Origin: an uncultured Gammaproteobacteria bacterium
GTDB lineage: Bacteria; Patescibacteriota; Microgenomatia; Levybacterales; UBA12049
NCBI GenBank assembly: GCA_964497535.1
Contig: CAZCCG010000002.1
Coordinates: forward strand, 104,227 to 168,226
DNA: 64,000 bases
Direction: 5' to 3'
In this document: positions 9,906-30,572 of the stretch, piece by piece
How positions within the stretch are numbered: the first letter of the stretch is position 1
How the letters are laid out: each line of letters begins with the position of its first letter
Program-made: the position numbers and the translations under genes
The notes under the pieces: model-generated
What the model was told of the DNA's origin: nothing
Databases searched by the model: none
What the model saw: the letters and a program-made list of their open reading frames with translations, nothing else

Positions 9906-9984
9906 AGAAGAGATGTGTATTATACAAAAAAAAGAAAGCACTAAGAACTACCTGAGAAAGACTTAACTATATCAAATCATGTCA

Positions 9985-15921: not shown

Positions 15922-15994
15922 TACTTTGTATTAAAAAAAGAGAATGAATAATGGTGTTTGTCTCAGGAATTAAGTAAGAAGTAGTTTAATTTTA

Positions 15995-16026
15995 GCTAGA
16001 CACACCCGGTGTGTTAGGTAGACACA
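15995..16026 (-). repeat. REP-like palindromic element, copy A (reverse orientation)
   Basis: CTAGACACACCCGGTGTGTTAGGTAGACACAT is the reverse complement of the GATGTGTCTACCTAG-CACACACCGGGTGTGTG unit seen in copies C and D. Confidence 0.6.
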
Positions 16027-16040
16027 TAAGGATTTTATTT

Positions 16041-16712
16041 ATGCCATACAGAAAAGAACCAATTATTGTTAATCAGATCTACCATGTATTTAATAGAAGT
16101 ATTGCCAAACAGCCAATTTTTATTAATACTAGGGATTTTAAACGAATTACGAAACTCATTGATTTTTATAGATACAAGAACCTTCCATTACGTTTTTCTC
16201 ACTTTCAACGTATATCCTATGAGGAAAAAGTGGAAATAAAGAATACATTTATGATTCAAGAAAACCTTTCTATCGATATTCTCTGTTATTGTATAATGCC
16301 AAATCATATCCATTTTTTACTACGAGTAGTCAAATCTCAAGGGATATCTAATTTTATGAGAAATTTACAAAATAGTTATTCAAAATATTTTAATACTAAA
16401 TATCATAGAACAGGTTCTTTATTTCAGGACATGTTTAAAGCCGTCTTAATTGAAACAAATGAACAGTTAATTCATGTTTCAAAATATATCCATTTAAATC
16501 CGGCTACAGCATATATGGTTGAAATCGATAAATTAGAAACTTATGAGTGGTCATCATTTAAAAGTTATCTTGTAAATGATATTAATTCTTTAATTGAAGA
16601 TAGAACAGTTATGAATTTTTTTAGAACAAAAGAAGATTATAAAAGCTTTGTATTAGACCAAGCAACCTACCAAAGAGATCTAGACAATATCAAACATTTA
16701 ATGTTAGAGTGA
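16041..16712 (+). CDS. HUH Y1 transposase, IS200-like / REP-associated tyrosine transposase (RAYT)
   Basis: HuH motif MPNHIHFLL and catalytic Tyr motif KYIHLNP. 223 aa. Flanked by inverted REP-like copies A and B. The ORF-track start at 16011 (a GTG inside the repeat) was replaced by the ATG at 16041. Confidence 0.8.
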   Translation: MPYRKEPIIVNQIYHVFNRSIAKQPIFINTRDFKRITKLIDFYRYKNLPLRFSHFQRISYEEKVEIKNTFMIQENLSIDILCYCIMPNHIHFLLRVVKSQGISNFMRNLQNSYSKYFNTKYHRTGSLFQDMFKAVLIETNEQLIHVSKYIHLNPATAYMVEIDKLETYEWSSFKSYLVNDINSLIEDRTVMNFFRTKEDYKSFVLDQATYQRDLDNIKHLMLE

Positions 16713-16715
16713 ATT

Positions 16716-16775
16716 CCTGATGTGTCTAGCCCTGCCTGCCGGCAGGCAGGTGGCACACAACGGGTGTGTGGAATT
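16716..16775 (+). repeat. REP-like element, copy B, with an embedded GC-rich perfect palindrome
   Basis: CCTGATGTGTCTAG + CCTGCCTGCCGGCAGGCAGG (a perfect 20-nt palindrome) + TGGCACACAACGGGTGTGTGG. Confidence 0.6.
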
Positions 16776-18154
16776 TAGAGGAAGTGGCGGAGGAAGTTGG
16801 CATAGCGTGGATGTCGTAATTTCTCAAAAATTTCTTCTTCTAGCTGCCCGATACGCTGCCGGTTGGTCCCAACCCGTTCTCCTACCTCTTTTCCTGTACG
16901 TTGTATACCATCCTCCAGACCGAGCCGTAATTTCAATACTTCCAAATCTCTTTTGGTCAGAAGACCTGATCCGGGTACATAATCCTCATTCGCTACACTG
17001 TGGTCGTCCAAATAGGTAAGTATTTCATCCAGTGAAACTGAGGATACTGCCTGCTCCTGAGGGAGAGGTTTTTTATCCTTAGCAAATTCCAGCAATGTAA
17101 CACCATTCACATCAAGTGGTATATCAGAAGACACAGTATAGATTTTCTCCGCTTCCTGGATTTGTCTGATTTGTTTCTCTCCAAAAGGAGCACCTTTTCT
17201 GCCAATTAACTCCTCATCAGGTACTTCTCTTCCTTCTTCAATGCTTACTCGAGTACGATATTCATTCCATCGTCTCATTTTAGCGTGCATATGGATTGCT
17301 ATACGAATGGTAGTTCCATGATTATCCCTAAATCGGCTTTGAGCTTGCCGAATCCACCAGGTGGCGTAGGTTGAAAATGCATACCCCTGCCACCGTTCAT
17401 ATAATTCCACTGATTTTATTACCCCCATTGCTCCAACCTGGGTTAACTCCTTATACATGTCGTCTGAAAGATGAAAACGGCCTGCATTTGACATAGCCAG
17501 ACGGACATTGCGCTCAATCAGTTCTTGTTCTCCTCGCTTCCCTGCTGCAATCAGATCAGACAACGCCTCCTCATCGATACTTCCCACACGGATATCGCGC
17601 GTCACAGCAATCCCATCATATATTGGCAGGGGGTCTTTGACAAATTGGCTTTTCTTTTTCTGCTCTGCGAGTTTTGCATCACGTTCCTCCTGTTTTTTCA
17701 CTAATATATACGGAGAAATAAGCTCGGAAAGGGGATATCCCTCTACGCAAACCCCAGCCAGTACGTTGTGTACCTCCTGCTGTGTATAGGGAACTTTTCC
17801 AAAATTGAGTCTATGTCCGGTCAGAATAGTTCTCCCCACAAGCCCAGCCTGCAGAGTCTGAGCAATTCTACCCCGTTCTATTTCCTCACATAGCGCTGAT
17901 TCTATTTCTTTATTCTCCAGCGGACGGATAACATCAGGATGCAACCCATAGACTCCCTGCTTTTCCATAACATATTCCAATTCCTCATGGGAAGCCCCCA
18001 GGTATCCATTTCTATCTCCTCCAATGATTGGAACTGCTTCCTCCAATAGTTCACTCTCCAAGTCATCTAATTGCTCGTAAACTTGATCATCTCCCACCAA
18101 CTCCAATTCAGCAGCATCTTCACGTGGATTTAGAAATTCATTTTCTTGTCTCAT
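16775..18154 (-). CDS. RNA polymerase sigma-70 family factor (RpoD-like, regions 1.2-4 present)
   Basis: Region 2 FSTYATWWIRQAQSRF and IRIAIHM. Region 4 LTKRDLEVLKLRLGL...VGERVGTNRQRIGQLEEEIFEKLRHP. Acidic N-terminal region. GC content is markedly higher than in the flanking genes. Confidence 0.85.
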   Translation of the reverse strand: MRQENEFLNPREDAAELELVGDDQVYEQLDDLESELLEEAVPIIGGDRNGYLGASHEELEYVMEKQGVYGLHPDVIRPLENKEIESALCEEIERGRIAQTLQAGLVGRTILTGHRLNFGKVPYTQQEVHNVLAGVCVEGYPLSELISPYILVKKQEERDAKLAEQKKKSQFVKDPLPIYDGIAVTRDIRVGSIDEEALSDLIAAGKRGEQELIERNVRLAMSNAGRFHLSDDMYKELTQVGAMGVIKSVELYERWQGYAFSTYATWWIRQAQSRFRDNHGTTIRIAIHMHAKMRRWNEYRTRVSIEEGREVPDEELIGRKGAPFGEKQIRQIQEAEKIYTVSSDIPLDVNGVTLLEFAKDKKPLPQEQAVSSVSLDEILTYLDDHSVANEDYVPGSGLLTKRDLEVLKLRLGLEDGIQRTGKEVGERVGTNRQRIGQLEEEIFEKLRHPRYANFLRHFL

Positions 18155-18215
18155 AAAAAATCATGATAACACTTGATTATTGTATTATCAAAATGGTGAT
18201 TAACAATGCTGAGGA

Positions 18216-19517
18216 TTAGACTTTGGTTACATTCATGTGCATGATATGGGGAGCTTCAATAAAATGACGGATCCTTTTGTCATGTATCTCACGGGATACT
18301 CTTTCAGCGTCAACTTCACAAGGGAATACTGTTTCTATCTGGGACCCATCTCCCATGAGGTCTACAATCGTAAAATGGACTTTATCATCTTCATCTATAA
18401 AAAAACTATACATGTCAGTACCAAATTGGTAAAACTTTCCGCTTTGCAAACCTTCAGATATATCGGAAGCTTTAAATGTTCTTAATTGTGTGTAAAATGG
18501 CGGTTCCGGCGTTAACCCTCCATTTTCATGGGATGTAGTAATACGAAACGCTGAATCTGGCGATTGCGGCATTACAATAAAGACAGTATAGTTACCAGCT
18601 TGTTGCATTCTCAGGATATTGGTATCGAGCAAATCCGCAATTGCGCGGGTTACACTTAAATTCTCCAACGAGGCTTGCTCACGGATAGTACAGGTACCCA
18701 AATCTTGCGGTAACATACCAATCGCATGTGAATGAATATAATCGATTAAAATATCCCTATCTTTTTGTTCCATCTCATCATCCACACCGCGTGTCACAAC
18801 ACGTTGTGCAATAGCATACAGGTTTTCAATAATCCTATTTTGGTCCTTAGGCGGAAGCGAGCCAAGTAAGCTGTTTTCATATGCTTCCAATTCGTCCTTT
18901 TCTTCTTCTGCAACTTCCTCATCATCTAATAGAGGATCTGCGTTATCCAGCAAAGCACGAACTCCATAATGGTCATAAAAATGGGCCAAATCCCTGACAT
19001 TTGCAGAAACTTTTCGTCTCAAAAGCACCTGTTGACGTTCATCTGAGGGTAAAGATAATAACTCTGAATCATCCGGTAATGGAGTATCTACATACACACC
19101 AAATTTCTCAAGTTCTCCAAATACCCCATAGACAGCCTGTACGTTCCGCAGTAACTGTCTATGAGGAAGCTTCATGGCAACTGACATCCGTCCCTCGTTA
19201 TCGTACTGTGCTACTTCAACCGGCGGAAGCCCTTCTCGATCATAGGGCGTAAAATAATAGGCAACTTCCTCAAGGCTTTCTAAATCTTCACCATATTGTT
19301 CAAAACGAGTACGGCTTTGTCCGGATTGGGTAAATTCTTCAAGATGCTCTACCGTACCTCTTCTCAAATCAACAATGCAGGTTTTGTCAACATAAGGACC
19401 TTTGTTCCTTAAAACAAATGCTTTTTCTCCTGTTGAGGGATCTACTACTTTCCATTCCCAATCAGAAGGTGTAGAGGGTATACCATTGGGGGGTTGATCT
19501 TCTGGTCCTCGTCCCAT
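18216..19517 (-). CDS. Hypothetical acidic protein (no recognisable domain)
   Basis: Long ORF in the GC-rich segment. The ORF-track start (MLGRHIR...) lies inside REP copy C, so it was trimmed to the ATG giving MGRGPEDQ. Confidence 0.45.
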   Translation of the reverse strand: MGRGPEDQPPNGIPSTPSDWEWKVVDPSTGEKAFVLRNKGPYVDKTCIVDLRRGTVEHLEEFTQSGQSRTRFEQYGEDLESLEEVAYYFTPYDREGLPPVEVAQYDNEGRMSVAMKLPHRQLLRNVQAVYGVFGELEKFGVYVDTPLPDDSELLSLPSDERQQVLLRRKVSANVRDLAHFYDHYGVRALLDNADPLLDDEEVAEEEKDELEAYENSLLGSLPPKDQNRIIENLYAIAQRVVTRGVDDEMEQKDRDILIDYIHSHAIGMLPQDLGTCTIREQASLENLSVTRAIADLLDTNILRMQQAGNYTVFIVMPQSPDSAFRITTSHENGGLTPEPPFYTQLRTFKASDISEGLQSGKFYQFGTDMYSFFIDEDDKVHFTIVDLMGDGSQIETVFPCEVDAERVSREIHDKRIRHFIEAPHIMHMNVTKV

Positions 19518-19599
19518 AAAAATGAATTTTAACACTTTGGTTGAGAAAGGAAAAGCTCCAATAAATTGTGCTATGTAAAGAGAATTTTCAGCAACGCTC

Positions 19600-19637
19600 C
19601 TGATGTGTCTACCTAGCACACACCGGGTGTGTGCAGG
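19600..19637 (+). repeat. REP-like element, copy C
   Basis: CCTGATGTGTCTACCTAGCACACACCGGGTGTGTGCAGG. Confidence 0.6.
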
Positions 19638-19696
19638 TAAATAAAAAGGGGTGCCGCCGACGAATCAGCTGACACCCCACGTGTGTATTGATCAAG

Positions 19697-20167
19697 TTAC
19701 TCTTGACCAGGAAATATATGCAAAGCGTAACCATGCATCGCCTTTACTCGATCACGGGCATGCTCTAACTGCTCTGCATCCGGCTCCGGGAATACCGTCC
19801 GATAACGACCGTATCGCCAGGTAACCCCATGAGAGTCCACGACTATGAACTCATGTGGCTTACCCAGATAACTGGTGTAGCGCCTGGCTGCTCCTAGTAT
19901 AAGGTTAAGCGCTTGCACGAAAGCCAACGCCAAGGCAGGATTCTGGCAGATTTCCTGCTTCTGAGCAAAGTAACGATCGTCAGGAAAATAGGACAAGAGC
20001 TCAAGCGCCCGATCCTGCTCAACCGGAGCATCCGACTCGTGTGCGATAACGCAGATAAGCTCCAATGGTATTTCATTTACCATCTGGAAAACTGCCGCGG
20101 TATCCAACGCCATGGGAACTCCTTCCAATCGCGACTGTGGACTCAATGGTCCAATCCCTCCGTACAA
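19697..20167 (-). CDS. Hypothetical protein, paralog family A (member 1)
   Basis: Shares VxxMVNEIPLELICVIAHESD and a C-terminal W(R/K)YG(G)R...VFP motif with the next ORF. Followed at its 3' end by a GGGTG/CACCC-stem hairpin plus T-run. Confidence 0.5.
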   Translation of the reverse strand: MYGGIGPLSPQSRLEGVPMALDTAAVFQMVNEIPLELICVIAHESDAPVEQDRALELLSYFPDDRYFAQKQEICQNPALALAFVQALNLILGAARRYTSYLGKPHEFIVVDSHGVTWRYGRYRTVFPEPDAEQLEHARDRVKAMHGYALHIFPGQE

Positions 20168-20248
20168 CCGCTGAGATTATATAGTGAAGAGTTAAAGAAG
20201 TCAAAATAAAAGGGTGCCATCGAAGAACGATAACACCCGTATAGTATA

Positions 20249-20686
20249 TTAGCGGAGCCCAGCACCGGCACTGGAAATGATAGCTTTTATGCGTCGTTGC
20301 ATACGAGCTGTATTCTTCTCATCCAACGCAGGAAAGACTGAAACACGTCCTCCATACTTCCAGATTTGGTCACCAACTTGTAGGGTGATCTCATGGGCAT
20401 CCCCGATATAGTTGATGTTTTGCCGTGCATGGTCAAGCCGCCGCATCATCGCGTCGGCGAAAAACTGCATCCCTGACGGGTCTTGAAGAATTGTCTCCTT
20501 CATAGCACTGTAGTGCTCATCCGGAAATAGATCCAAGAGCAACAATGTCTGTGTCGGTGTAATCTCCGTATCTGCCTGGTGGGCTATGATACACACCAAT
20601 TCCAGCGGCATCTCGTTGGCCAGATCATAAGCAGTGCGCAAAATGTGCGGTACCGGCATGACTCTGCTCCTTTCCCAACTATGCAA
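20249..20686 (-). CDS. Hypothetical protein, paralog family A (member 2)
   Basis: Carries the NEMPLELVCIIAHQAD motif, paralogous to 19697-20167. It has its own downstream hairpin terminator. Confidence 0.5.
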   Translation of the reverse strand: MHSWERSRVMPVPHILRTAYDLANEMPLELVCIIAHQADTEITPTQTLLLLDLFPDEHYSAMKETILQDPSGMQFFADAMMRRLDHARQNINYIGDAHEITLQVGDQIWKYGGRVSVFPALDEKNTARMQRRIKAIISSAGAGLR

Positions 20687-20776
20687 TACCGTGGAGATTA
20701 TATAGTGAAGATCTTATGAAGTCAAAAAAAGAGGGTGCCCCGAGTCAGACTCGGAACACCCCATGGATAACGATGA

Positions 20777-21109
20777 TCAAGGAATTTTTGGATTTGAAAG
20801 TTCGAGACGTTGTCGTCTCTCGTAATCTCCAATTAACCTACTAATTGCATGCATCTCCTCCCGGATAGGCTGGAGTGAGCAATCGATTGTCTCCTGATCC
20901 AGGTTACACCTGGCCAGAATGGGCTGTATCTCTCTAACAGCTCCATCAAGCCGCATAAACTCTTGGTAGGCGAGATGGTAATCTTGACCAGACTGAAGCG
21001 ACTGCTCCTTTCTTGTCCGAGACAGCCAGACAATTACGACGACTACCCAGATAGCGCAGAGAACGATGACTACGACTAGCGGGTTGATGAGCCACTCCAA
21101 AGAATACAT
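20777..21109 (-). CDS. Hypothetical N-terminally membrane-anchored protein
   Basis: One N-terminal TM helix (LVVVIVLCAIWVVVVIVWL). GC-rich codon usage matches its neighbours. Confidence 0.4.
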   Translation of the reverse strand: MYSLEWLINPLVVVIVLCAIWVVVVIVWLSRTRKEQSLQSGQDYHLAYQEFMRLDGAVREIQPILARCNLDQETIDCSLQPIREEMHAISRLIGDYERRQRLELSNPKIP

Positions 21110-21125
21110 GATCCCTCCCCTCTCT

Positions 21126-21395
21126 CTAGTCTTCGAGTTTTGTTGTAATCCTGTCGATGATACGATTTACGTAATCGTTCAACTTTTCCCGGTGATGATA
21201 TACCACAGGACCTACTACCACAAAGATCACACCTGTGACAATGGAAGCAAGAAGAAAATGGTTAGTGAAGACTATTGTCAGGAAATGGCCAGCTGCAGTC
21301 CCCAGTAAGACCCCAACCATCAGACATGCAATCCCACCAAAAAGCCCCACGTAGTAACTCTTGACACTGTTTGCGAAGCTGTGGAACTTTTTCAC
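21126..21395 (-). CDS. Small membrane protein (2 TM helices)
   Basis: 89 aa with two hydrophobic helices. Confidence 0.35.
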   Translation of the reverse strand: MKKFHSFANSVKSYYVGLFGGIACLMVGVLLGTAAGHFLTIVFTNHFLLASIVTGVIFVVVGPVVYHHREKLNDYVNRIIDRITTKLED

Positions 21396-21547
21396 CTCAG
21401 TCCCCTTTCAATGTACTCACCACACGGAAAACTCCGCGGGTATTGATTGAGAGTATACACTACTATGAGATAGAAATCAAAGGTGTACAGATAAAAAAAG
21501 CCTCCCCCGCGAAGCGGGAAAGGCCTGGGATGCGCCACACGGCGCGG

Positions 21548-21940
21548 TTAACAGACGAGAACTAAGAAAGCGTGATCCGCCTCCTCACGGCTGGGGAATG
21601 CCTCGATAAGGCGAGTTCCGAGAAACTCAAGATGGCTGAGTTTGCGGGGGTGACCGATTTCCTCGGCGAACATGGACAATCCCCACGACTTGATCGTTGG
21701 CTGGTAAATCGCTACAACCTCAGCAATTCCTTGCCCAGGGTCGCAGACAATCGCCCAGTGGAGCGGGGAATTTTTGATGTCCTCGACCAAGTCGAGGGCG
21801 GCCCCCCAATGACCTGTCTGAAAGACGAACTCCCGACTAGGATGGATTCCGTGCAGGATCTGGAAGAACTCTTCCGAGTAACCTACCAGGATATCCGGCT
21901 CACCGGTCTGCTTATCGGCATAAACCAGGTAAATCATCAC
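21548..21940 (-). CDS. Hypothetical protein
   Basis: 130-aa ORF in the GC-rich, same-strand gene run; no recognised motif. Confidence 0.4.
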   Translation of the reverse strand: MMIYLVYADKQTGEPDILVGYSEEFFQILHGIHPSREFVFQTGHWGAALDLVEDIKNSPLHWAIVCDPGQGIAEVVAIYQPTIKSWGLSMFAEEIGHPRKLSHLEFLGTRLIEAFPSREEADHAFLVLVC

Positions 21941-22269
21941 GTCCTCCTGCTATGGTTTTGCTGAACATCGTGCTCAAGGACTCGCTGCAAGCATCTATTC
22001 CTGCAAGAATTGAAATCCTGCGCCAGGATAAATGTTGTCGGAGCCACCCCACAAAGCAAATCATGAGGGACAGTCATCCACCGGTTGAGACCCTCTATTG
22101 TGGGAAACTGACTCAATAGCCGGATCAAAAACCGGGACGATGCAGGATCCTGCATAAGTTGGCCTATCGCTTCATACACCAAATGTGAGACCTCGTGTCC
22201 TTCATCGAGGTATTCTTGACACCGGCGAGCTGTTTCATAATTGGTATGATCTGACGCAGACATTCCCAA
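21937..22269 (-). CDS. Hypothetical protein
   Basis: 110-aa ORF with an ATGA overlap with the downstream ORF; no recognised motif. Confidence 0.4.
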   Translation of the reverse strand: MGMSASDHTNYETARRCQEYLDEGHEVSHLVYEAIGQLMQDPASSRFLIRLLSQFPTIEGLNRWMTVPHDLLCGVAPTTFILAQDFNSCRNRCLQRVLEHDVQQNHSRRT

Positions 22270-22289
22270 CTCCTTCCATCTCTGGTCGA

Positions 22290-22502
22290 TTATTTCAGTA
22301 CGTCAAAGATGACTATCACAATCATCACTACACACGCAAAAACTAACCCTCCAAATACTGAAATCAAGAACCTCTCCATAGTCTCTCCCTGGGGAGAAGA
22401 ATACGCATAACCAGTCTTGAGCATTGGCATCTTTGGGATAAGCAACCACAGAAATGCTGACCCAAACAACAATGCCACAAGAGATACAGCTACAGATGCC
22501 AT
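22290..22502 (-). CDS. Small membrane protein
   Basis: 70 aa with two hydrophobic segments. Confidence 0.3.
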   Translation of the reverse strand: MASVAVSLVALLFGSAFLWLLIPKMPMLKTGYAYSSPQGETMERFLISVFGGLVFACVVMIVIVIFDVLK

Positions 22503-22697
22503 TTCCCCTCCCTGGAGTGTTGGTTCGCTTGAACGTATTCCAAGCGAGTACCCTTCTATCTACCAAAATAAACAGAATGTCACCCGCTTGGCAAAATCAA
22601 GGTGCAATTTACTCATTTCATGACCAGAAACTGGTGAAAAATGATTGAAGAGATTATAACAAAGGAAGAATACAGAGTCAAACTATAGGATTATGAT

Positions 22698-22724
22698 GGG
22701 CGGTCGAGTCTGACTCGACCGCCC
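22698..22724. terminator. Perfect 12-bp-stem hairpin (GGGCGGTCGAGTC-TGA-CTCGACCGCCC), probable terminator downstream of the SDR gene
   Basis: Perfect inverted repeat directly 3' of the minus-strand FabG-like gene. There is no strong U-tract, so the terminator role is tentative. Confidence 0.35.
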
Positions 22725-22746
22725 AGTAGACTTGCATGTTGGGAAA

Positions 22747-23520
22747 CTATGCCATGACCATGCCGCCATCGACGTGAAGTACCTGTCCAGTAATATATGC
22801 CGCTGCGGGATCAAGGAGCAAGAATGCTACGACTCCAGCTACCTCAACCGAAGTACCAGGACGCCCGATAGGAATCATCGCAAGGATTTGATCTTTCATG
22901 CTCTCAGATACGTTGTCCCACATGGGACTTGGGATGTATCCGGGAGCGACAGCGTTGACTGTAATCCCTCGTTTGGCGTTCTCCAGAGCCGCAGACTTGG
23001 TTAGTCCGATCAAACCAGCTTTGGCTGCTGCATAGTTGGCTTGGCCGGCATTCCCGATCACGCCAACCACCGAGGTGACATTGACGATCCGTCCAAACCT
23101 ACGATGTGCCATCCTTCTGTATTCCCTATTTCCCAAGACCTCCCGGGTACAGAGGAATGCCCCTCGAAGATTGGTAGCCAGCACCGAATCCCAATCAGCC
23201 GGGGGCAGGAATGGGATAAGGTTATCGCGATTGATACCGGCGTTGTTTACCAGGAAATCAATGCGGCCAAACCGATTATATGTCCTGGCAACAAGCCGAA
23301 CCACTTCCGATTCTTTGGCAACATCAGCCTGAAGCGCAATGGTCTCACTACCAGAGAGACGGATTGACCGAGCAACCTTCAACGCCTGGGAACGATCCCG
23401 ATGATAGTGGACTACAACTGAAACTCCTTCTCGTCCCAGTGCCTCTGCAATTGCAGCACCAATCTCTCCGGAAGCTCCGGTAACCAGAGCCACTTTGCCA
23501 ATTCCCCTCTGATCTGCCAT
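22747..23520 (-). CDS. 3-oxoacyl-ACP reductase-like short-chain dehydrogenase/reductase (FabG family)
   Basis: TGASGEIGAAIA Rossmann motif, NNAG, and a catalytic S...YxxxK region (NYAAAKAG). Confidence 0.85.
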   Translation of the reverse strand: MADQRGIGKVALVTGASGEIGAAIAEALGREGVSVVVHYHRDRSQALKVARSIRLSGSETIALQADVAKESEVVRLVARTYNRFGRIDFLVNNAGINRDNLIPFLPPADWDSVLATNLRGAFLCTREVLGNREYRRMAHRRFGRIVNVTSVVGVIGNAGQANYAAAKAGLIGLTKSAALENAKRGITVNAVAPGYIPSPMWDNVSESMKDQILAMIPIGRPGTSVEVAGVVAFLLLDPAAAYITGQVLHVDGGMVMA

Positions 23521-23624
23521 GAAAAAACTCCTTGGATCTGGCCAATTGGCTTGACCTGTGCCCCTTTTTCATCAATAGAAATATACTGATGAGCAAAGTC
23601 AGAAGATTATATCACTCTTTTCAT

Positions 23625-24656
23625 CTAAATCTTTATTTTTATGAAAACGATTGTGGGAGTTTGGCCCAGTAGTCCAATTTTGTAACTACTGATCTGATGA
23701 TTGGGAAACACGTGCTTTGCATGTTTGATTAGTAAGTCAGGTTTGGATACTAATAAACATAACGCTGCCTCTGGTTGAAGGATTCTTTTGTACTCCTCAA
23801 GTGTCTTTCTATACAAATCTGTAATACTTCCTATCGCAATCTGCTTATCCCAGGGGAGATTGGAAATAGCAGCATTAAAGAAATCACTATTCCATGTAAT
23901 TTTGGTAGCATCCAAGTTTTTTATGTGATCTAATTGATCAAAACCTAACCTGCTTAAGTTGTTTTGGCTAATCGTTACACTTTCCGGGTCACTATCTCCT
24001 CCATACACACTGTTACCCATAAAGAATGCTTCACAAAGGACTGTCCCGCTGCCACAAAAATTATCGACAACCTTTAGGTTTTGCTTTCCTTCTGTAACCA
24101 TCACTACCATTGCTGCCGCTACTGTTGCTTTCAAAGAACCTGGCTTGGATACTGTTTTGTAGCTGCGATGATGTAAGCTTTCCGGGGTCAACCGCACAGA
24201 AATAAAAAGCTTTGATCCATCGATAAAGATACGGATGTCAAAATTGCTGTGGTCAAACGCACGATATTCCCATTGGTATTTTTGAGAAATTTCCTGTGCT
24301 GCGGTTCTGGTTATTTCTTTTGAATCCAACTTATTTTTGGCGCTACTGATTGTCAGGGAAAACGTCTGAGGATCCAGTGTTCGTACCTGTTGCAGCATAC
24401 TTCTGGTTTTGCGTAAGTCCAAGCCATTTATTATTTCCAAAAGTTGCGGCAACGCAGTTACCTCTTCATCAGATGCGAGAAGTATTCCAATATCATCAAC
24501 CGTTCTTAACCGAACCAGAGTTTCAAAAGAAGCATGTGTTTTAAATACAATCCGTTTGTCCAAAACCTCAAGGATATGTGCATCTTTTATATACGATACA
24601 ATTTCCTGTTCAACAATTTGTTCCAGGCCTTTGGTGCAATACGCAATGTAGTTCAT
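23625..24656 (-). CDS. THUMP-domain class I SAM-dependent RNA methyltransferase (RlmL/Trm11-like)
   Basis: N-terminal THUMP-like region. MTase motif I DNFCGSGTV and motif IV NLPW. Confidence 0.6.
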   Translation of the reverse strand: MNYIAYCTKGLEQIVEQEIVSYIKDAHILEVLDKRIVFKTHASFETLVRLRTVDDIGILLASDEEVTALPQLLEIINGLDLRKTRSMLQQVRTLDPQTFSLTISSAKNKLDSKEITRTAAQEISQKYQWEYRAFDHSNFDIRIFIDGSKLFISVRLTPESLHHRSYKTVSKPGSLKATVAAAMVVMVTEGKQNLKVVDNFCGSGTVLCEAFFMGNSVYGGDSDPESVTISQNNLSRLGFDQLDHIKNLDATKITWNSDFFNAAISNLPWDKQIAIGSITDLYRKTLEEYKRILQPEAALCLLVSKPDLLIKHAKHVFPNHQISSYKIGLLGQTPTIVFIKIKI

Positions 24657-25423
24657 GAAGAGAGAATAAATTTGTTAACCACATCAACTACTCCGTCTTC
24701 TGTTACAGAAGGTGCGATATAATCTGCAATTGCTTTAAGATCCGGTACCGCATTACCCATAGCAACTTTGAGTCCACATGCCATCAGAAGCGGAAAATCA
24801 TTATAACTGTCTCCTACTCCGATGACCTCTTCTTTTTTCAGGTTCAACTGTTTTAAAACCGCCGCAATACCTTGCAGTTTTGTAGCTTTTACATGAGTAA
24901 TATTTATTCCATATTTGTGAGGATTTTTATGATGTATTTTTTGTACAGAAATATTGTGAAGATGAGAAAGTTTTTTGGCAAGATCATCTATTTTTTTTGA
25001 AGAATAATGTTCATAGGTAAAAATCATATAGGCTTTTTGGAAAGGATCTCCCTTTTTGAAGTAATTATTTATAAATGACCTGTCAAAGGTTTTTTGTTTG
25101 AGATAGAACGGTATTTTTTCCTGATCTAAGAGGTTAATAATGATTTCCGCATCCCGTAAGTCTAACGGTTGCTCATACATAACTTCTTTACTGGAAAGTT
25201 CTATGACTTGTGCGCCATTATTTACGATAACAAATCCTTTTTTTAATTGTAACTTTTCCAGAATATTGAGAATAAACGGATAAGAACGCCCTGTTACCAA
25301 ACAGATTTCTAACTTTTGCTGTGCTTTGCCAATAGCTATTGCTACGGCATCTGAAGGAAGAGCATTATAGTCATAGGGAATCAATGTCCCATCGACATCA
25401 AGCATGATTGCCTTGTATTTCAT
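24653..25423 (-). CDS. HAD-IIB Cof-type phosphatase
   Basis: DVDGTL motif I, GDSYND motif, and Cof-like length. Very low GC. Confidence 0.8.
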   Translation of the reverse strand: MKYKAIMLDVDGTLIPYDYNALPSDAVAIAIGKAQQKLEICLVTGRSYPFILNILEKLQLKKGFVIVNNGAQVIELSSKEVMYEQPLDLRDAEIIINLLDQEKIPFYLKQKTFDRSFINNYFKKGDPFQKAYMIFTYEHYSSKKIDDLAKKLSHLHNISVQKIHHKNPHKYGINITHVKATKLQGIAAVLKQLNLKKEEVIGVGDSYNDFPLLMACGLKVAMGNAVPDLKAIADYIAPSVTEDGVVDVVNKFILSS

Positions 25424-25526
25424 AGGGGAATTGTATCACAGGAATTTGAAGCCAAAGGGGTATGGATTAAAAAAGTGCCGGGAAGATTGCTCTTCCCGGC
25501 TTTATAGAATCGGACGTTGTGGACGA

Positions 25527-25805
25527 CTAGCCGTACATGAACTTCATCACCAATAGCGCAAGTGATTGAAACGCAATAAAGATGTTTGTTATCACAATTG
25601 GTGGACTCTTGACAGCCTTTGTACCGTAGATCATCCAGCAACAACTCTGAGTGAAGAATAGAAGCAAAGTCCAAGGAGACAAATCTTTTGTCTCGCTGGT
25701 CTGCAAAACCTGGATAAGCTGAGGTGTAAGCATAAAGATGGCCAATATAGACCCTATATAGCCAAACGTATGCCACGAGATCAGCCGCTTCATCTTTCCC
25801 TCCAC
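25527..25805 (-). CDS. SemiSWEET (PQ-loop/MtN3 family) sugar transporter
   Basis: 92 aa, three TM helices, PQ motif in TM1 (LTPQLIQVLQT). Matches the SemiSWEET layout. Confidence 0.6.
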   Translation of the reverse strand: MEGKMKRLISWHTFGYIGSILAIFMLTPQLIQVLQTSETKDLSPWTLLLFFTQSCCWMIYGTKAVKSPPIVITNIFIAFQSLALLVMKFMYG

Positions 25806-25939
25806 TTAACGTGCGATGGGGGGAATTATAACAAAAAACATGAGATAAAACAAACTATGGGGTTCTTTAAGGGTTGGGGTTTCAAAAAATAAAAAACCCC
25901 CGGTACCCAAAAGGTACCGAGGGCGTCGTCTTGCAGAGA

Positions 25940-26611
25940 TTACTGTCCCTGCCCGCACTGGCGGAAATAGTTGTTGCGGAGCTGCCGCAACCTTGGAAAT
26001 ACAACCATTTTCCACCATGGCGCTGCCGCTGCATCGAGCTGTACGGTGTCCTGAACCCAGGTGAGAAACTCTTCCTCTGATGCGTTCACAGAGAGCTTTC
26101 TTCCCGGTGAAACGAGCGTCGAATCCTCTGCGCCTATGATGCGCAGATTCCATGCTCTCTTCTGCGGATCCTCCTCCATTGTGAAATATATCTGCAGGTA
26201 CTTGGTAGAGGAAAGGGGTTGAATCAGAGTCGTGGTAGCCTCGCCGTAATTTCCCCCGGGGATTGGCATGGGCCACACTCCGGATATAGTTCCCGGCGGC
26301 ATATACGGTGCTACTTCCAGTCCCGCCAACAACGCGGCCTTGAGTTGCCGTTGTGCAGCAGAGGTGGCTGTGGGGATACCATTTTCCCCAACGGAGAAGT
26401 AGATGTCCAGACAAATGTCGCGGGAGTTATCCCACAACTCAATGAGCTGGAAGTGTACCTCCACTTCTTCCACAGACACCTGGATCCGCTCGTCTGAAAA
26501 AGCTATCGAGACTGCGGTCCTCCACTCCCGACACGCTTGCTCCCTAATGTCATGATGGGCCATGAAGTACCGGTACAAGTCGGGCAAACACTTCGCGATG
26601 ATACGCGGCAT
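25940..26611 (-). CDS. Hypothetical protein (GC-rich segment)
   Basis: 223-aa ORF with ordinary amino-acid composition. The overlapping alternative-frame ORF 25806-26414 is R/G-rich and was judged spurious. A hairpin plus T-run lies 3' of it at about 25875-25920. Confidence 0.45.
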   Translation of the reverse strand: MPRIIAKCLPDLYRYFMAHHDIREQACREWRTAVSIAFSDERIQVSVEEVEVHFQLIELWDNSRDICLDIYFSVGENGIPTATSAAQRQLKAALLAGLEVAPYMPPGTISGVWPMPIPGGNYGEATTTLIQPLSSTKYLQIYFTMEEDPQKRAWNLRIIGAEDSTLVSPGRKLSVNASEEEFLTWVQDTVQLDAAAAPWWKMVVFPRLRQLRNNYFRQCGQGQ

Positions 26612-26845
26612 GATCTGCTCCTTTTCTGGGCTTCACCTTTGTCTACTCCGAATCGTCGGAGTGAAGTGAAACTGCCCCATCAAATAAGAATGTGTTCTTA
26701 TCTCATAGGGTAGTATCACTTAACAAAAGGAAACAATTGCAGTAATCTTAATGTGCAAGAATTTGAAATGCTACAAAATCGTTTTTGAGCCTGCAGAGTA
26801 TAGCAAAAAAGAATATGAAAGTAAACTATAGGGCAAAATATTTTC

Positions 26846-26875
26846 TTGACAAAGGCTATGGGCTCATGATATAGT
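26846..26875 (+). promoter_or_regulatory. Sigma-70-type promoter with extended -10 (TTGACA-18-TGaTATAGT)
   Basis: TTGACA at 26846-26851, TG at 26867-68 and TATAGT at 26870-75. Confidence 0.45.
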
Positions 26876-26954
26876 AATCTCATGAACAAAGCACAGCAAT
26901 TAAATAGAAGACCAATAACTTCCTAACGGGGAGGTATTTGTCGTGTGTACAAAA

Positions 26955-26974
26955 CTCCCCCTGGGAGTTTTTTT
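26955..26974 (+). terminator. Intrinsic terminator hairpin (CTCCC-CCT-GGGAG + T7) in the leader upstream of the paralog-B pair; an upstream GGGGAG could form an alternative pairing
   Basis: Stem-loop followed by TTTTTTT about 80 nt downstream of the predicted promoter and about 110 nt upstream of the ATG at 27083. GGGGAG at 26927-26932 could alternatively pair with CTCCCC. Confidence 0.4.
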
Positions 26975-27082
26975 GTTGTGGAAAAGCACCTTAAAACTTA
27001 TAGGAGGCAGTGACCTCAGGAAGATTATAAGTCTTTCTGCGGGTGCTGCTTACCTATACTATAGCAGCGCCGGGAGAGGTAG

Positions 27083-27736
27083 ATGGACGACCGTTCCTAT
27101 GCGAGAGTACATGTTCATGGAGACAAATCTATGGAAGGAGACAAAGTATCACTGGTGAGTACCTCACCCCTTGGGCCCCGCCTCGAAACCAACATCGGGT
27201 ACTGTCCCTTTGTACGCGAGGTTGAATACTGCGCCTTCTTTGGACAAGTACCGTTGGGTGAATACTATTTGGTATATACCACACAAACCGGTATCCACCA
27301 GATCGATACGGCTTTGGAAGCTTTTATCGATCTGCCGAAGTTCCGGCTGGATACCGCTCGTGTGGTACCGGTAGTACCTTTCTCCGCCGAAAAAGACCTC
27401 GTAAAGGCAATGCGTGAAGCACAACAAGACCTCATGCATTGTCTTGTGTTGTCTCCGAGCATCAAGTATGGAGTACTTTGGTACGCTCGCAGTGTACTTA
27501 CGTCTCGATTGGCTCAAGCTGAAAAAGAGTTGGAGCGTCGGGGAAAGCAACAACTGGGAGGTTTGACAACCGAGCAACAGAGAGGCCTGCAGGAACTCTC
27601 CGAATGTGTTCTGCGGAGTATGAAAACCTTGGAGCTCCATAGCGCACTTGACTTCTACCGATTGCTTTCGATCCTCTGTAACGAAAGTACTACGGTAGCC
27701 AAAGTTATGCGGATAATCTATCCTGCACTCCGCTGA
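27083..27736 (+). CDS. Hypothetical protein, paralog family B (member 1)
   Basis: Shares SLVSTSPLGP, ELERRGKQQLGGLTTEQQ and DFYRLLSIL with the next ORF. Confidence 0.55.
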   Translation: MDDRSYARVHVHGDKSMEGDKVSLVSTSPLGPRLETNIGYCPFVREVEYCAFFGQVPLGEYYLVYTTQTGIHQIDTALEAFIDLPKFRLDTARVVPVVPFSAEKDLVKAMREAQQDLMHCLVLSPSIKYGVLWYARSVLTSRLAQAEKELERRGKQQLGGLTTEQQRGLQELSECVLRSMKTLELHSALDFYRLLSILCNESTTVAKVMRIIYPALR

Positions 27737-27750
27737 GAAGTACACACCGA

Positions 27751-28467
27751 GTGTATGCAAACACTAGAAGCACTGGAGGAGAAATGGACGAACATTGGGC
27801 AAGTGTGTGGGGCAAAACCTACAAAGATGAGGTAGTTGTACACGTTGGAAGAGGAATGAAAGGAGCCCGTATTTCGCTCGTCAGCACTAATCCGCTTGGG
27901 CCGCATCTCCACGCATACGTTGAGCAATTCGGTTCTCTGAGAGGAGAAGGAGGAGGGTTTGGCGCCGTCTTTGAGAACGTACCCGCCGGCGAGTACTGGG
28001 TTGTTGGGATGCACTTGGGACACTGCATCATTGAGGCAGGAGTAGATGCCAAACTTCTACCTGGGGATATCCCGGATAACATCGTACTGCTAGATCCCGG
28101 ATACCAGGATTCTCATCTGCGTAAGGCCATCTCCGCTGCATGTAACAACCTCAAGAAACTTACCGGCGTCTCCTGGGGTATGAAATATGCAGCACTGTTG
28201 TATACTCGCAGGCAGTTTGCACCCGAGATGAGTGCAGCTGAAAAGATCCTCGAACGGCGGGGCAAGAACCATCTTGCCGGTCTCACAACAGAGCAAGAGA
28301 AGATACTCGGTATTATTTCCCAAACTGTTGTGGAGAATATGACAGAGCTTGGGCTGTGTCGGGCAATCGATTTCTATCGGTTGCTCTCGCTTCTTTACAA
28401 AGGAAGGAAAGACAGCGCCAAAATCCTGGAGATGCTTCATCCGAATCAAGGTAATTCGGTGGAGTAA
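27751..28467 (+). CDS. Hypothetical protein, paralog family B (member 2)
   Basis: Tandem paralog of 27083-27736 (SLVSTNPLGP, ILERRGKNHLAGLTTEQE, DFYRLLSLL). An imperfect hairpin plus T-run follows at about 28473-28516. Confidence 0.55.
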   Translation: MYANTRSTGGEMDEHWASVWGKTYKDEVVVHVGRGMKGARISLVSTNPLGPHLHAYVEQFGSLRGEGGGFGAVFENVPAGEYWVVGMHLGHCIIEAGVDAKLLPGDIPDNIVLLDPGYQDSHLRKAISAACNNLKKLTGVSWGMKYAALLYTRRQFAPEMSAAEKILERRGKNHLAGLTTEQEKILGIISQTVVENMTELGLCRAIDFYRLLSLLYKGRKDSAKILEMLHPNQGNSVE

Positions 28468-28524
28468 AACCATCATGCCCGGTTTCCCATTCGTGGGGAG
28501 CCGGGCTCTTTTTATGGGATAATC

Positions 28525-28560
28525 CCGATGTGTCTACCTACCACACACCGGGTGTGTGTA
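28525..28560 (+). repeat. REP-like element, copy D (abuts tRNA-Val 3' end)
   Basis: CCCGATGTGTCTACCTACCACACACCGGGTGTGTGTA. Confidence 0.6.
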
Positions 28561-28568
28561 AAAAGGAG

Positions 28569-28640
28569 TGGACCCGAGAGGATTCGAACCCCTGACATCT
28601 GCAATGTGAATGCAGCGCTCTACCACTGAGCTACGAGTCC
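28569..28640 (-). tRNA. tRNA-Val (anticodon CAC)
   Basis: Cloverleaf by eye: acceptor GGACTCG/CGGGTCC, D-arm GCTC-AGTGGTA-GAGC, anticodon arm CTGCA-TTCACAT-TGCAG, T-arm with TTCGAAT loop. No encoded CCA. Confidence 0.85.
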
Positions 28641-28808
28641 TAATAAACCAGCTGCTTGCCCCGTATATTTGCTCTTGCGAAACCCCGATATAATGGGGAT
28701 GAGCAAGTAAGAATTGTACGGGGAGCCAAGCGGCCTCAAATCAACCCTTATCTTACCATAAAAACCCTCACATTGACAAAGAAAGCCAATATTTGGGAGA
28801 ATAGATAG

Positions 28809-29399
28809 ATGAGTCTTACTACCCGAATATTTCTCTTCCTTGTTGATATTGCCCAAACACTTCTGATTGCAGGAGTTTTATTTTTAATCATTTATAAAAC
28901 GCTGGTAGCTCCTTTTCAGGTCAATGGACAATCTATGTTTCCCAATTTCCATGATGGAGAGTATGTGCTTACCAACCTGATCGGATTTGAAGATCTCTTT
29001 GTATATAAAGTACATTTTGGCAAGCTCAAATTAGGAGATGTAGTGGTATTTAAGGCTCCTCCTGATCCTTCAAAAGATTATATAAAACGTGTAATTGGCG
29101 TGGCAGGTGATACCGTAATGATCCAAAATGGGGATGTTTATTTGAATGGAAAACTTCTTGACCAAAGTTCGTTTCTGGGAGCTGAGGTAAAAACATACGG
29201 CGGAGCATTTATGCCGGAAGGGGTTACCAAAACAGTACCACAAGGGAATTATTTTGTAATGGGTGACAATCGGGGAGGAAGTTCAGATTCGCGGGAATGG
29301 GGATTTGTTCCTCAAGATGTAGTAATTGGGACATCCATGTTAGTGTATTGGCCGGTTAATGAAGTACGAATAGTGAAAAATCCCTATACCAAACAATAA
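28809..29399 (+). CDS. lepB: Signal peptidase I
   Basis: N-terminal TM helix, catalytic Ser region GQSMFPNF, Lys box YIKRVIGVAGD, and GDNRGGSSDSR. Confidence 0.85.
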   Translation: MSLTTRIFLFLVDIAQTLLIAGVLFLIIYKTLVAPFQVNGQSMFPNFHDGEYVLTNLIGFEDLFVYKVHFGKLKLGDVVVFKAPPDPSKDYIKRVIGVAGDTVMIQNGDVYLNGKLLDQSSFLGAEVKTYGGAFMPEGVTKTVPQGNYFVMGDNRGGSSDSREWGFVPQDVVIGTSMLVYWPVNEVRIVKNPYTKQ

Positions 29400-30233
29400 T
29401 TATTCTGCCAAACCTTCTTTTGTTAAAATTTCGTGGATTTTCTTCAGCTGTGGTGACGTTTTTTCCGGATCTCCTTTGATCACAATTGTCATACGAGCCA
29501 ACAAACGGGATTGAAATACTGATACTTTGTCAAATTCATATTTCTTCTCAATTGCCTGTGCCATTTCATCAAGCTCAGGAATCCATAACCGGTCTTTTTT
29601 GGTGTTGGGCTCTTTTTTCTGTTGTTCACCTTTGATATGCCGGGCATCTTCCTCTGCCTGACGAACCGTCAGATTTTCTTTGAGAATCTTTTTAAAAAGT
29701 TCCAGCATAAGCTTGGGATCTCCCAAAGAAATCAAAGGCCGCACATGTCCTTCGGTAATAACTCCGGCTACTAACGCATCTTTAATAGCATCAGGAAGCG
29801 TCAATAACCGAATCGTGTTGGAAACTGCAGGAGCACTTTTTCCTACTCTTTTAGCAACTTCTGTGGTTCCGAGACCAAATTCATCAATAAGTCTCTTGTA
29901 TGCCAGGGCTCGTTCAATAGGATTAAGATCCTCCCGTTGTACATTTTCAACGATTGACATCTCAAGCATTCCCTGAGGAGTGGTTATCTTCACGACTACA
30001 GGAACCACCTTCAAGCCTACAATTTTTGCTGCTCTCCAACGGCGTTCACCTGCAATAATCTGATACCCTGCCGGTGTTTTGGCAACTACAATTGGTTCCA
30101 AAATCCCCTGTTCTTTAATAGAATCAACCAGTTCTGAAAGAGATTCGGGCATAATTACACCCCGGGGCTGAAGAGGATTTGACTGAAGGAGCTGAATTTC
30201 CAGCTCGTATATTCGTTCTTCTTGTGAATCCAT
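29400..30233 (-). CDS. parB: ParB/Spo0J family chromosome partitioning protein
   Basis: ParB box GERRWRAA and an HTH region. Its stop abuts the lepB stop (convergent, zero gap). Confidence 0.85.
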   Translation of the reverse strand: MDSQEERIYELEIQLLQSNPLQPRGVIMPESLSELVDSIKEQGILEPIVVAKTPAGYQIIAGERRWRAAKIVGLKVVPVVVKITTPQGMLEMSIVENVQREDLNPIERALAYKRLIDEFGLGTTEVAKRVGKSAPAVSNTIRLLTLPDAIKDALVAGVITEGHVRPLISLGDPKLMLELFKKILKENLTVRQAEEDARHIKGEQQKKEPNTKKDRLWIPELDEMAQAIEKKYEFDKVSVFQSRLLARMTIVIKGDPEKTSPQLKKIHEILTKEGLAE

Positions 30234-30241
30234 ACAATTGG

Positions 30242-30499
30242 TTAACCTTGAGCAGTAACTACCTCTACTACTTTTTTGCCTCTGCGGATTTTAAACTGAA
30301 CAACACCCTGCGCTACCGCAAATAAGGTGTAATCTCTTCCCATACCCACATTTTTCCCAGGATGAAATTTAGTACCTTTTTGACGAACCAAAATATTTCC
30401 CGCAATTGCAGGCTGTCCACCATAGATTTTAACTCCAAGTCTTTTGGCTTTGGAATCTCTATTTCCTTTAACTGCTCCTTGTGCTTTTGTATGTGCCAT
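30242..30499 (-). CDS. rpmA: 50S ribosomal protein L27
   Basis: MAHTKAQG...[13 protein letters not shown] is the canonical L27 N-terminus. Confidence 0.9.
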
Positions 30500-30572
30500 A
30501 TAAATCTTTGTTTGTGAAAACTTAAGTCTATTTTAGCTTGATTTTTCACAATGTCAAGCTACTCAAAATAGA

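Follow-up and report, generated by a model that had tools for sequence, protein, structure and literature searches.

Why should a stretch of DNA that is richer in GC than its surroundings, and that encodes a sigma-70 factor among a series of open reading frames (ORFs) without recognisable domains (ORFans), lie between a transposase gene and the 3' end of a tRNA-Val gene? The question is raised by a 64,000-nucleotide stretch of contig CAZCCG010000002.1 (here called the window), for which a reading of the letters alone (the sequence-only reading) had proposed that positions 16716–28640 are either a horizontally acquired island that brought its own sigma factor or an assembly chimera. The interval is in fact a hotspot of variable content, its present filling is a mosaic in which two blocks bear a foreign signature, and the assembly is contiguous. 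We consider it probable that the hotspot was filled stepwise, and independently of an integrase, by a host-adapted layer and two imported blocks. As genomic islets go, the segment is of an ordinary kind, and it is not a single island with a sigma factor of its own.

The isoleucyl-tRNA synthetase (IleRS) encoded in the window (32099–35056) is 62–70% identical to those of 80 loci, nearly all from metagenome-assembled genomes (MAGs) of Candidatus Levybacteria/Patescibacteria, and by this measure the host is a Levybacteria bacterium of the candidate phyla radiation (CPR). The relatives were read over ±10 kb around IleRS of each of these 80 loci (numbered with an L below). The gene order IleRS-RodA-o140-L27-ParB-LepB is kept in 57 of them; for the window, Pfam and NCBIfam confirm the identities of LepB and ParB. 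In 13 of the 25 relative loci scanned, tRNA-Val(cac) adjoins LepB, and a glycan locus begins 8–551 nt past LepB in 25 of the 48 loci with enough flank. The families of this glycan locus match positions 9985–15921 of the window, directly left of the segment, and bigFn3, its conserved opening gene in many Levybacteria, is represented in relatives by homologues (family F3) that directly follow LepB/tRNA-Val. The flanking features are:

9985–10953: GT2 glycosyltransferase of the glycan locus, of a family common to the relatives' glycan locus
10941–11981: GT4 glycosyltransferase of the glycan locus, up to 59% identical to relatives
11978–12739: methyltransferase of the glycan locus, of a family common to the relatives' glycan locus
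12733–15921, plus strand: bigFn3 surface protein with Peptidase_C39_2 and fn3 domains (Pfam), left anchor and first gene of the glycan locus
28568–28640, minus strand: tRNA-Val(cac), found by ARAGORN and Rfam, conserved right anchor adjoining LepB; the sequence-only reading had placed this tRNA correctly

Because the flanking families adjoin in many relatives, the 12.6 kb between 15.92 and 28.57 kb represent the filling of an interval of about 0.2–0.5 kb. The whole interval, sigma factor included, is missing at the syntenic site in 46 of the 48 relatives, and none of the 80 loci contains, within the range read, a homologue of FabG, THUMP, HAD, SemiSWEET or any ORFan (all described below). The sequence-only reading had named related genomes as a check. 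The segment is absent from the syntenic site among the 48 Levybacteria loci, and tRNA-Val is in contact with LepB in the 13 loci mentioned. Other cargo occurs at the same place. A thiamine ABC transporter and pyrophosphokinase cluster is found at the LepB/glycan site in L045, L080 and L083, and small GC-rich ORFans lie between LepB and the glycan locus in L017 (6983–8832), L032 (17158–17755) and L075 (16317–16814). The latter have a GC content of 0.46–0.50 vs 0.39–0.40 for the core, and one ORFan family, common to L017 and L032, carries the Shine-Dalgarno sequence (SD) AAAGGAG. Judged by gene order, a variable hotspot lies between LepB/tRNA-Val and the glycan locus.

The 12.6-kb stretch is real and correctly assembled. 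Logan contigs from independent assemblies of SRR9179560, SRR9179562 and SRR9179563 match the window at 100% identity and tile it at 6775–23562, 22673–26692, 24484–28097, 26663–28550 and 28595–30501. Every internal junction between host-like and GC-rich DNA (16.7, 19.6, 23.6 and 25.8 kb) is crossed by such contigs, which refutes at these positions the chimera that had been offered as an alternative.

The segment had also been described as richer in GC than its surroundings, and this is correct. Sliding-window GC is 0.42–0.51 across 16.7–28.6 kb, with a dip at 23.6–25.5 kb, and 0.33–0.41 in the flanks; by parts, it is 0.467 (16716–23560), 0.384 (23561–25810) and 0.491 (25811–28567), as against 0.367 and 0.384 outside. 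The GC-rich DNA resolves into two blocks, with the following genes:

19634–23560, minus strand: foreign block 1, GC 0.44–0.58, four transcription units
19697–20113, minus strand: A1, with its own predicted promoter and terminator
20249–20659, minus strand: A2, with its own predicted promoter and terminator
20777–21109, minus strand: m110, one transmembrane helix
21126–21395, minus strand: m89, two transmembrane helices
21548–21937, minus strand: o130
21937–22263, minus strand: o110
22290–22502, minus strand: o70, two transmembrane helices
22747–23520, minus strand: FabG (Pfam and NCBIfam), hairpin downstream
25450–28522, both strands: foreign block 2, GC 0.48–0.54, GC content at third codon positions (GC3) 0.50–0.64, three units
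25527–25793, minus strand: SemiSWEET, with a PQ-loop Pfam match and its own terminator
25940–26611, minus strand: o223, with its own terminator
26612–27082: AT-rich divergent promoter region, predicted to drive the B1-B2 operon
27083–27736, plus strand: B1
27784–28467, plus strand: B2, with the B1-B2 terminator at 28477–28506

Three signals separate these blocks from the host genes. The first is GC3, for which 52 ORFs outside the segment, L27, IleRS and ParB among them, served as reference (0.332 ± 0.056). A1, A2, m110, o130, o110, FabG, o223, B1 and B2 deviate by z = 2.9–5.4; SemiSWEET has a GC3 of 0.57, and the block genes span 0.45–0.64. The remaining genes are host-like, within z = −0.8 to 0.9: the sigma factor (0.38, z = 0.9), its neighbour ORF433 (0.32, z = −0.2), the THUMP methyltransferase (0.38) and the HAD phosphatase (0.29). 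In the sigma factor and ORF433 total GC is raised through the first codon position (GC1 0.57–0.62), that is, by an acidic amino-acid composition. Because their GC3 is host-like, the compositionally foreign part begins at about 19.63 kb and not at 16.7 kb.

The second signal is the ribosome-binding site. A strong GGAG/GAGG SD at −9 to −13 precedes 11 of the 12 GC-rich genes, for example GGAAGGAG, GCAGGAGGA and TGGAGGAG, as against 9 of 50 host genes if any start within the first 50 codons is allowed (Fisher p = 3e-6) and 4 of 50 if the first start is taken (p = 3e-8). Levybacteria core genes with well-defined starts rarely have one (L27, 6/64; LepB, 3/43; o140, 1/68). The third signal is promoter architecture. 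A perfect TTGACT-N17-TATAAT occurs three times in the 64 kb, always in block 1 (20176–20204, 20697–20725 and 22653–22681), and 13 of 42 host genes, including those for the sigma factor, ORF433 and HAD, have a −10-like hexamer right before the ATG. The SD and promoter signals give the same partition into host and foreign genes as GC3, and do so independently.

Of the compositionally foreign mosaic of about 11.8 kb in the sequence-only reading, the mosaic structure and the foreign nature of two blocks stand; the sigma-ORF433 and THUMP-HAD genes are host-like and have to be taken out of it. Similarly, the description of HAD, SemiSWEET and THUMP as low-GC, native-looking genes holds for HAD and THUMP and fails for SemiSWEET, with its high GC3 and strong SD.

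In many Levybacteria genes a −10-like hexamer stands 5–12 nt before the ATG, so that their mRNAs would have a short leader or none. In o140 orthologues, TATAAT immediately precedes the start codon in many genomes.

Within block 1, a predicted promoter at 22681–22653 would serve o70, o110 and o130, which end at a terminator at 21526–21498, and the m89-m110 unit ends at an intrinsic terminator at 20762–20732. The two tandem paralogue pairs seen by the sequence-only reading are genuine: the A1 and A2 proteins are 37% identical (E = 1e-28), as are B1 and B2 (37%, E = 3e-37). The terminator-promoter cassettes of A1 and A2 are 85% identical over 52 nt, which suggests a tandem duplication in which regulation was kept while the coding sequences diverged fast. 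Each ORFan had been credited with its own terminator with a GGGTG/CACCC stem. This proved too general, as such stems follow only A1, A2 and m110, and several ORFans belong to operons of two or three genes (m89-m110, o70-o110-o130 and B1-B2). The FabG-like short-chain dehydrogenase/reductase was correctly recognised: it scores 280.7 with TIGR01830 (cut-off 297.75) and 237.8 with the FabG subfamily model NF009466 (cut-off 222), and it is about 50% identical to fabG of Bacillus, Listeria and Staphylococcus.

The gene calls on the Logan contigs do not include m110, m89, o110 and o70, all four of which have good SDs. At 21548–21964 two ORFs of 130 aa are mutually antisense at nearly identical coordinates; the one on the minus strand has an SD and is called in the Logan assemblies.

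The ORFans and paralogues had been described as lacking recognisable domains, and they have indeed no match in Pfam, PHROG (E < 1e-3), NCBIfam or PADLOC; Pfam matches at E ≤ 10 were only noise. PHROG matches of m110 and o223 to families of unknown function (E about 2e-3 to 6e-3) were likewise judged to be noise. Global protein homology searches covered ORF433 and the B family, and both recovered their own query: ORF433 matched only itself among 1.84 billion representatives scanned exhaustively, and a B-family profile found only B1 and B2 among 5.8 billion proteins. A sequence search of the PDB with ORF433, the A family, the B family and o223 gave nothing significant. AlphaFold models had low confidence (pLDDT of 46 and 57, the latter for the A family), and Foldseek found nothing in the PDB below E = 1 for the A-family model. 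IMG/VR held no relatives of the sigma factor, ORF433, B2, the A family or o223, and comparison with 50,697 phage genomes (blastn and tblastn) and with plasmids returned only generic fabG similarity. The family and structure searches that the sequence-only reading had proposed as a check thus gave no family or fold match in the libraries tried.

The host-adapted genes of the segment lie outside the foreign blocks:

16775–18154, minus strand: RpoD-like sigma-70 factor of 459 aa, with Pfam regions 2 and 4
18216–19517, minus strand: ORF433, an acidic ORFan specific to the lineage, upstream of the sigma factor and in the same orientation, with an extended −10 TGTTAAAAT 9 nt before the ATG
23625–24656, minus strand: THUMP/UPF0020 RNA methyltransferase (Pfam), in a host-like operon, overlapping HAD
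24653–25423, minus strand: Cof-type HAD phosphatase (Pfam), without SD, with TGTGATACAAT 7 nt before the ATG

Since Pfam regions 2 and 4 both pass, the 459-aa protein is a member of the sigma-70 family. An acidic N-terminus is followed by region 1.2, an insert of about 110 aa and regions 2–4; the protein aligns end to end with RpoD_Cterm and carries near-canonical regions 2.4 (YATWWIRQA) and 4.2. Its gene lacks an SD and has an extended −10, TGTTATCAT, about 8 nt before the ATG. The TIGR02393 score is 135.7 bits vs a cut-off of 354, and all RpoD equivalog models stay below their cut-offs. Among 5.8 billion proteins it meets a flat plateau of RpoD matches at about 35% identity, and close relatives were absent both from a GTDB genome scan with this single protein and from the IMG/VR scan.

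Two relatives, L080 and L045, nevertheless carry a sigma factor at the same position, right beside bigFn3. That of L080 aligns end to end with the one in the window at 25% identity, and each of the three is nearer to canonical RpoDs (35–40%) than to the others, a divergence far above that of housekeeping proteins from the same genomes (IleRS, 62–70%; ParB, 70–80%). From these positional homologues, the host-type codon usage and the host promoter we conclude that the sigma factor is a fast-evolving older resident and not cargo of the GC-rich DNA. The sequence-only reading was right in calling the factor complete, but its assignment to an island that brought it is not supported.

In L045 (CP066685.1, 20860–20980) a frameshift in an A5 run splits the sigma homologue immediately ahead of region 2.3/2.4, which could reflect a pseudogene, slippage or a sequence error. 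ORF256, upstream of the sigma factor in L080, was considered as a relative of ORF433 and is unrelated. A match to MzaA of the MZA anti-phage system was rejected as well, since it reaches 129.9 bits vs a cut-off of 800 and is confined to the sigma domain; no other PADLOC match occurs in the locus.

The repeats at the ends of the segment belong to a system of repetitive extragenic palindromes (REPs) and a REP-associated Y1/HUH transposase (RAYT):

16000–16034, minus strand: REP copy A, inverted with respect to B, C and D, directly upstream of the RAYT gene, folding as a hairpin
16041–16712, plus strand: RAYT, Pfam Y1_Tnp at E = 2.9e-12, GC 0.27
16713–16775, plus strand: REP copy B, split by a nested perfect palindrome of 20 nt, CCTGCCTGCCGGCAGGCAGG, with a fold of −15.4 kcal/mol (z = −3.3)
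19598–19633, plus strand: REP copy C, at the left edge of foreign block 1, a direct repeat 94% identical to copy D
28523–28558, plus strand: REP copy D, ending 9 nt from the 3' end of tRNA-Val

The RAYT gene thus lies between two inverted REPs that both fold as hairpins, an arrangement characteristic of REP/RAYT systems. The four copies are the only ones in the window; all are extragenic, all fall within 16.0–28.6 kb, and they fold as hairpins and sit at gene 3' ends. The 29-nt REP core recurs exactly in seven other metagenome contigs (L089–L095; Hainich groundwater, JGI), two of which (L092 and L095) have RAYT homologues beside the same REP that are 48% identical. With an identical core beside such divergent transposases, conservation is far stronger in the REP than in the RAYT. 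No paper that connects RAYTs with Patescibacteria turned up in a literature search.

The foreign DNA and THUMP-HAD lie between copies C and D, which may have been recombination partners or may have colonised intergenic terminator regions. Copies B, C and D had been reported from the sequence at 16716, 19600 and 28525 as ends and interior of the island. All three are present, together with the inverted fourth copy; they are parts of the RAYT/REP system in ordinary extragenic positions and not island boundaries, and copy D stops 9 nt short of the tRNA instead of abutting it.

The position beside a tRNA had further suggested a classic insertion point for an island. However, no integrase, recombinase or resolvase match to Pfam occurs in main or alternative ORFs between 16 and 28.6 kb, and the sole mobility gene, the Y1 RAYT, is at the end far from the tRNA. 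The 22-nt 3' segment of tRNA-Val has no second copy in the window, allowing up to 3 mismatches. Site-specific integration is therefore unsupported, and tRNA-Val is the boundary of a hotspot, not a demonstrated attachment site.

We favour a scenario in which 15.9–28.57 kb would be a lineage-specific filling of a recombination/insertion hotspot in the Candidatus Levybacteria chromosome, between the IleRS-RodA-L27-ParB-LepB-tRNA-Val block and the bigFn3/glycosyltransferase cell-surface locus. Three layers may be distinguished. One would comprise the RAYT gene and the REP hairpins, and a second the host-adapted genes, that is, the fast-evolving RpoD-like sigma factor with the ORFan upstream of it and the THUMP methyltransferase-HAD phosphatase operon. 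The third would consist of two recently acquired blocks of about 3.9 kb and 3.1 kb, apparently organised as moron-like units of one to three genes and still showing donor-type signals: GC3 of 0.45–0.64, strong SDs, consensus −35/−10 and strong intrinsic terminators. At least two acquisition events, by illegitimate or REP-assisted recombination and not by site-specific integration, would account for this arrangement. As donors we envisage organisms or elements that use SDs and have a GC content of about 50%; the transfer is presumably recent, as the donor signals are not yet ameliorated. The foreign genes are probably expressed independently of their neighbours, and the set, which comprises FabG, SemiSWEET, three small membrane proteins and two tandem paralogue pairs that are diversifying, may serve the cell in an accessory way, whether at the envelope, in defence or in interaction with a host.

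Several observations weigh against this scenario or limit its reach. The GC-normalised tetranucleotide correlation of the blocks to the host is 0.69–0.71, as against 0.81 ± 0.05 for host segments, a deviation of about 2 sd; the compositional check proposed by the sequence-only reading is thus positive for GC in both blocks and only modest for tetranucleotides. Blocks 1 and 2 are no more alike in tetranucleotides than random host segments, so that a common donor of both, which we considered, gets no support from this signature. No donor was identified, FabG being only about 50% identical to FabG of Bacillales, and no function was found for the ORFans in the family, structure, phage and plasmid libraries tried. 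As the relatives were covered for ±10 kb around IleRS, THUMP, HAD and the sigma factor may lie elsewhere in their genomes. With 64 kb of the host genome covered, the sigma factor of the window may or may not be the only (housekeeping) one of the cell. Finally, 44 nt between REP-D and the tRNA (28551–28594) are unbridged by independent contigs, because the REP-D palindrome and the tRNA body are both repeats, which break de Bruijn unitigs. A false join there is very unlikely, since both outer flanks adjoin in relatives.

Two competing views fare about equally, and we think both unlikely. According to one, SD-led, GC-rich ORFan cassettes would be recurrent imports at the LepB/tRNA-Val-glycan boundary, seen also, in miniature, in L017, L032 and L075, and would form an undescribed accessory module for host interaction or defence, composed of the A and B families, the small membrane proteins and the neighbouring RpoD-like sigma factor, which would read the canonical −35/−10 promoters of the module. 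Such cassettes might be delivered by some vector, or might originate in a higher-GC bacterial host of episymbionts.

The other doubtful view, that the GC-rich blocks are the remains of a Levybacteria prophage or mobile element, with morons and lysis-like membrane proteins, that lost its integrase and structural genes, would fit the units of promoter, SD-led ORF and terminator, the deviant GC, the hotspot adjoining a tRNA and the three small transmembrane proteins, of which m89 weakly matches Phage_holin_3_6 (E = 0.033, 14.7 bits). It would require, however, that every other trace of a phage has vanished: there are no integrase, terminase, capsid or tail genes and no PHROG match below E = 1e-3, neither IMG/VR (for the five queries used) nor the 50,697 phage genomes contain relatives, and FabG and SemiSWEET are of cellular type.

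A single tRNA-targeted island of about 11.8 kb, acquired in one event with its own sigma factor driving the ORFans as one accessory system, was the central proposal of the sequence-only reading, and we now regard it as improbable. It would agree with the absence of the interval, sigma included, from 46 of 48 relatives, with the position against the 3' end of tRNA-Val, with the extreme divergence of the sigma factor (25–35% identical to anything else) and with the canonical −35/−10 promoters of the blocks, which an RpoD-like sigma factor could read. Yet the sigma factor and ORF433 have host-like GC3, no SD and near-start promoters, and the ORFan blocks are the opposite on all three counts; the sigma homologues of L045 and L080 stand beside bigFn3 with entirely different cargo; the host-like THUMP and HAD genes divide the GC-rich DNA; and neither an integrase nor an attachment-site repeat is present. 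Nothing was found that links the ORFans and the sigma factor into one system.

That the block genes are native and vertically inherited, and owe their composition and SDs to selection, for example for very high expression, appears highly improbable. Consensus promoters, strong SDs and strong terminators would suit highly expressed genes, and the tetranucleotide deviation is modest, but the block genes are missing from the syntenic site in 48 relatives, their GC3 is 3–5 sd above that of the 52 host genes, and the searches with ORF433 and the B family brought up no homologue in other genomes. The least credible possibility, an assembly or binning chimera in which GC-rich DNA of another organism was joined at repeats, could draw on the sharp GC changes at the REP copies and on the 44 nt without independent cover, but three run-level assemblies span all internal host/foreign junctions at 100% identity, and a chimeric join would not rebuild the arrangement of outer flanks that are direct neighbours in relatives.

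Some features of the flanks may be recorded here. bigFn3 encodes 1062 aa with a GC3 of 0.21 and combines Peptidase_C39_2, CHB_HEX_C, Fn3_assoc, a purple-acid-phosphatase N domain and fn3. In IleRS, a tandem repeat of three 24-nt units (33332–33403, minus strand; 87% matches) adds a repeated PFDSAQGK-like octapeptide. Many of the IleRS relatives (L010, L013, L017, L018, L023 and many more) are third-party annotation (TPA) MAG records titled 'uncultured Gammaproteobacteria', and a few others are titled Methylomirabilota, Acidiferrales or Lysobacterales. Records so titled have an IleRS 62–69% identical to that of the window and the complete Levybacteria gene order, and their taxonomic labels look wrong.

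The locus is a clean and well-anchored case of recent gene import into a CPR genome, in which three signals independent of one another (GC3, ribosome-binding sites and promoter architecture) separate imported from host genes, and it establishes that across Levybacteria the tRNA-Val/LepB-glycan boundary is a hotspot. It adds several protein families without detectable relatives, two of them duplicated and diverging, and offers a useful case for studying the expression of SD-led foreign genes in SD-poor CPR bacteria. No new mechanism or system emerges from it, and its main attraction, the sigma factor, is not linked to the imported genes. Two aspects are of most interest: host and imported genes contrast in their signals for translation and transcription, and GC-rich, SD-led ORFans recur at this site in other Levybacteria.

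Each component resembles a known system in part. Like group 1/2 sigma-70 factors (RpoD/SigA-like), the sigma factor of the window has region 1.2, regions 2–4 and near-canonical 2.4 and 4.2 motifs; unlike them, it falls far under the equivalog cut-offs and is only about 35% identical to RpoDs. The REP/RAYT systems (REPINs) of Proteobacteria likewise have a Y1 transposase gene between inverted REP hairpins, further extragenic REPs at gene 3' ends and a GTAG motif beside the palindrome. The present system differs in its CPR host, in having four copies in 64 kb that all lie within 12.6 kb, and in that the same REP occurs beside RAYTs only 48% identical in other contigs; its REPs also mark the edges of blocks, which they need not have moved.

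With tRNA-integrating islands, integrative and conjugative elements and prophages the segment shares its position against a tRNA 3' end, its deviant GC and its absence from relatives, but it contains neither a tyrosine nor a serine integrase, lacks a duplicate of the tRNA 3' segment and carries no genes for transfer and none of phage type. The promoter-ORF-terminator units of the blocks, with a GC content unlike that of their neighbours, are reminiscent of phage morons, although they lie outside any prophage and have no phage homologues. The closest parallel is with integrase-less genomic islets at hotspots, which have the same conserved anchors, variable content, deviant composition and many ORFans, and, as here, adjoin a cell-surface glycan locus and a tRNA. 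From these the segment is set apart by its CPR host, by foreign genes that differ from the host genes also in translation-initiation mode and promoter type, and by the interleaving of host-adapted with foreign genes.

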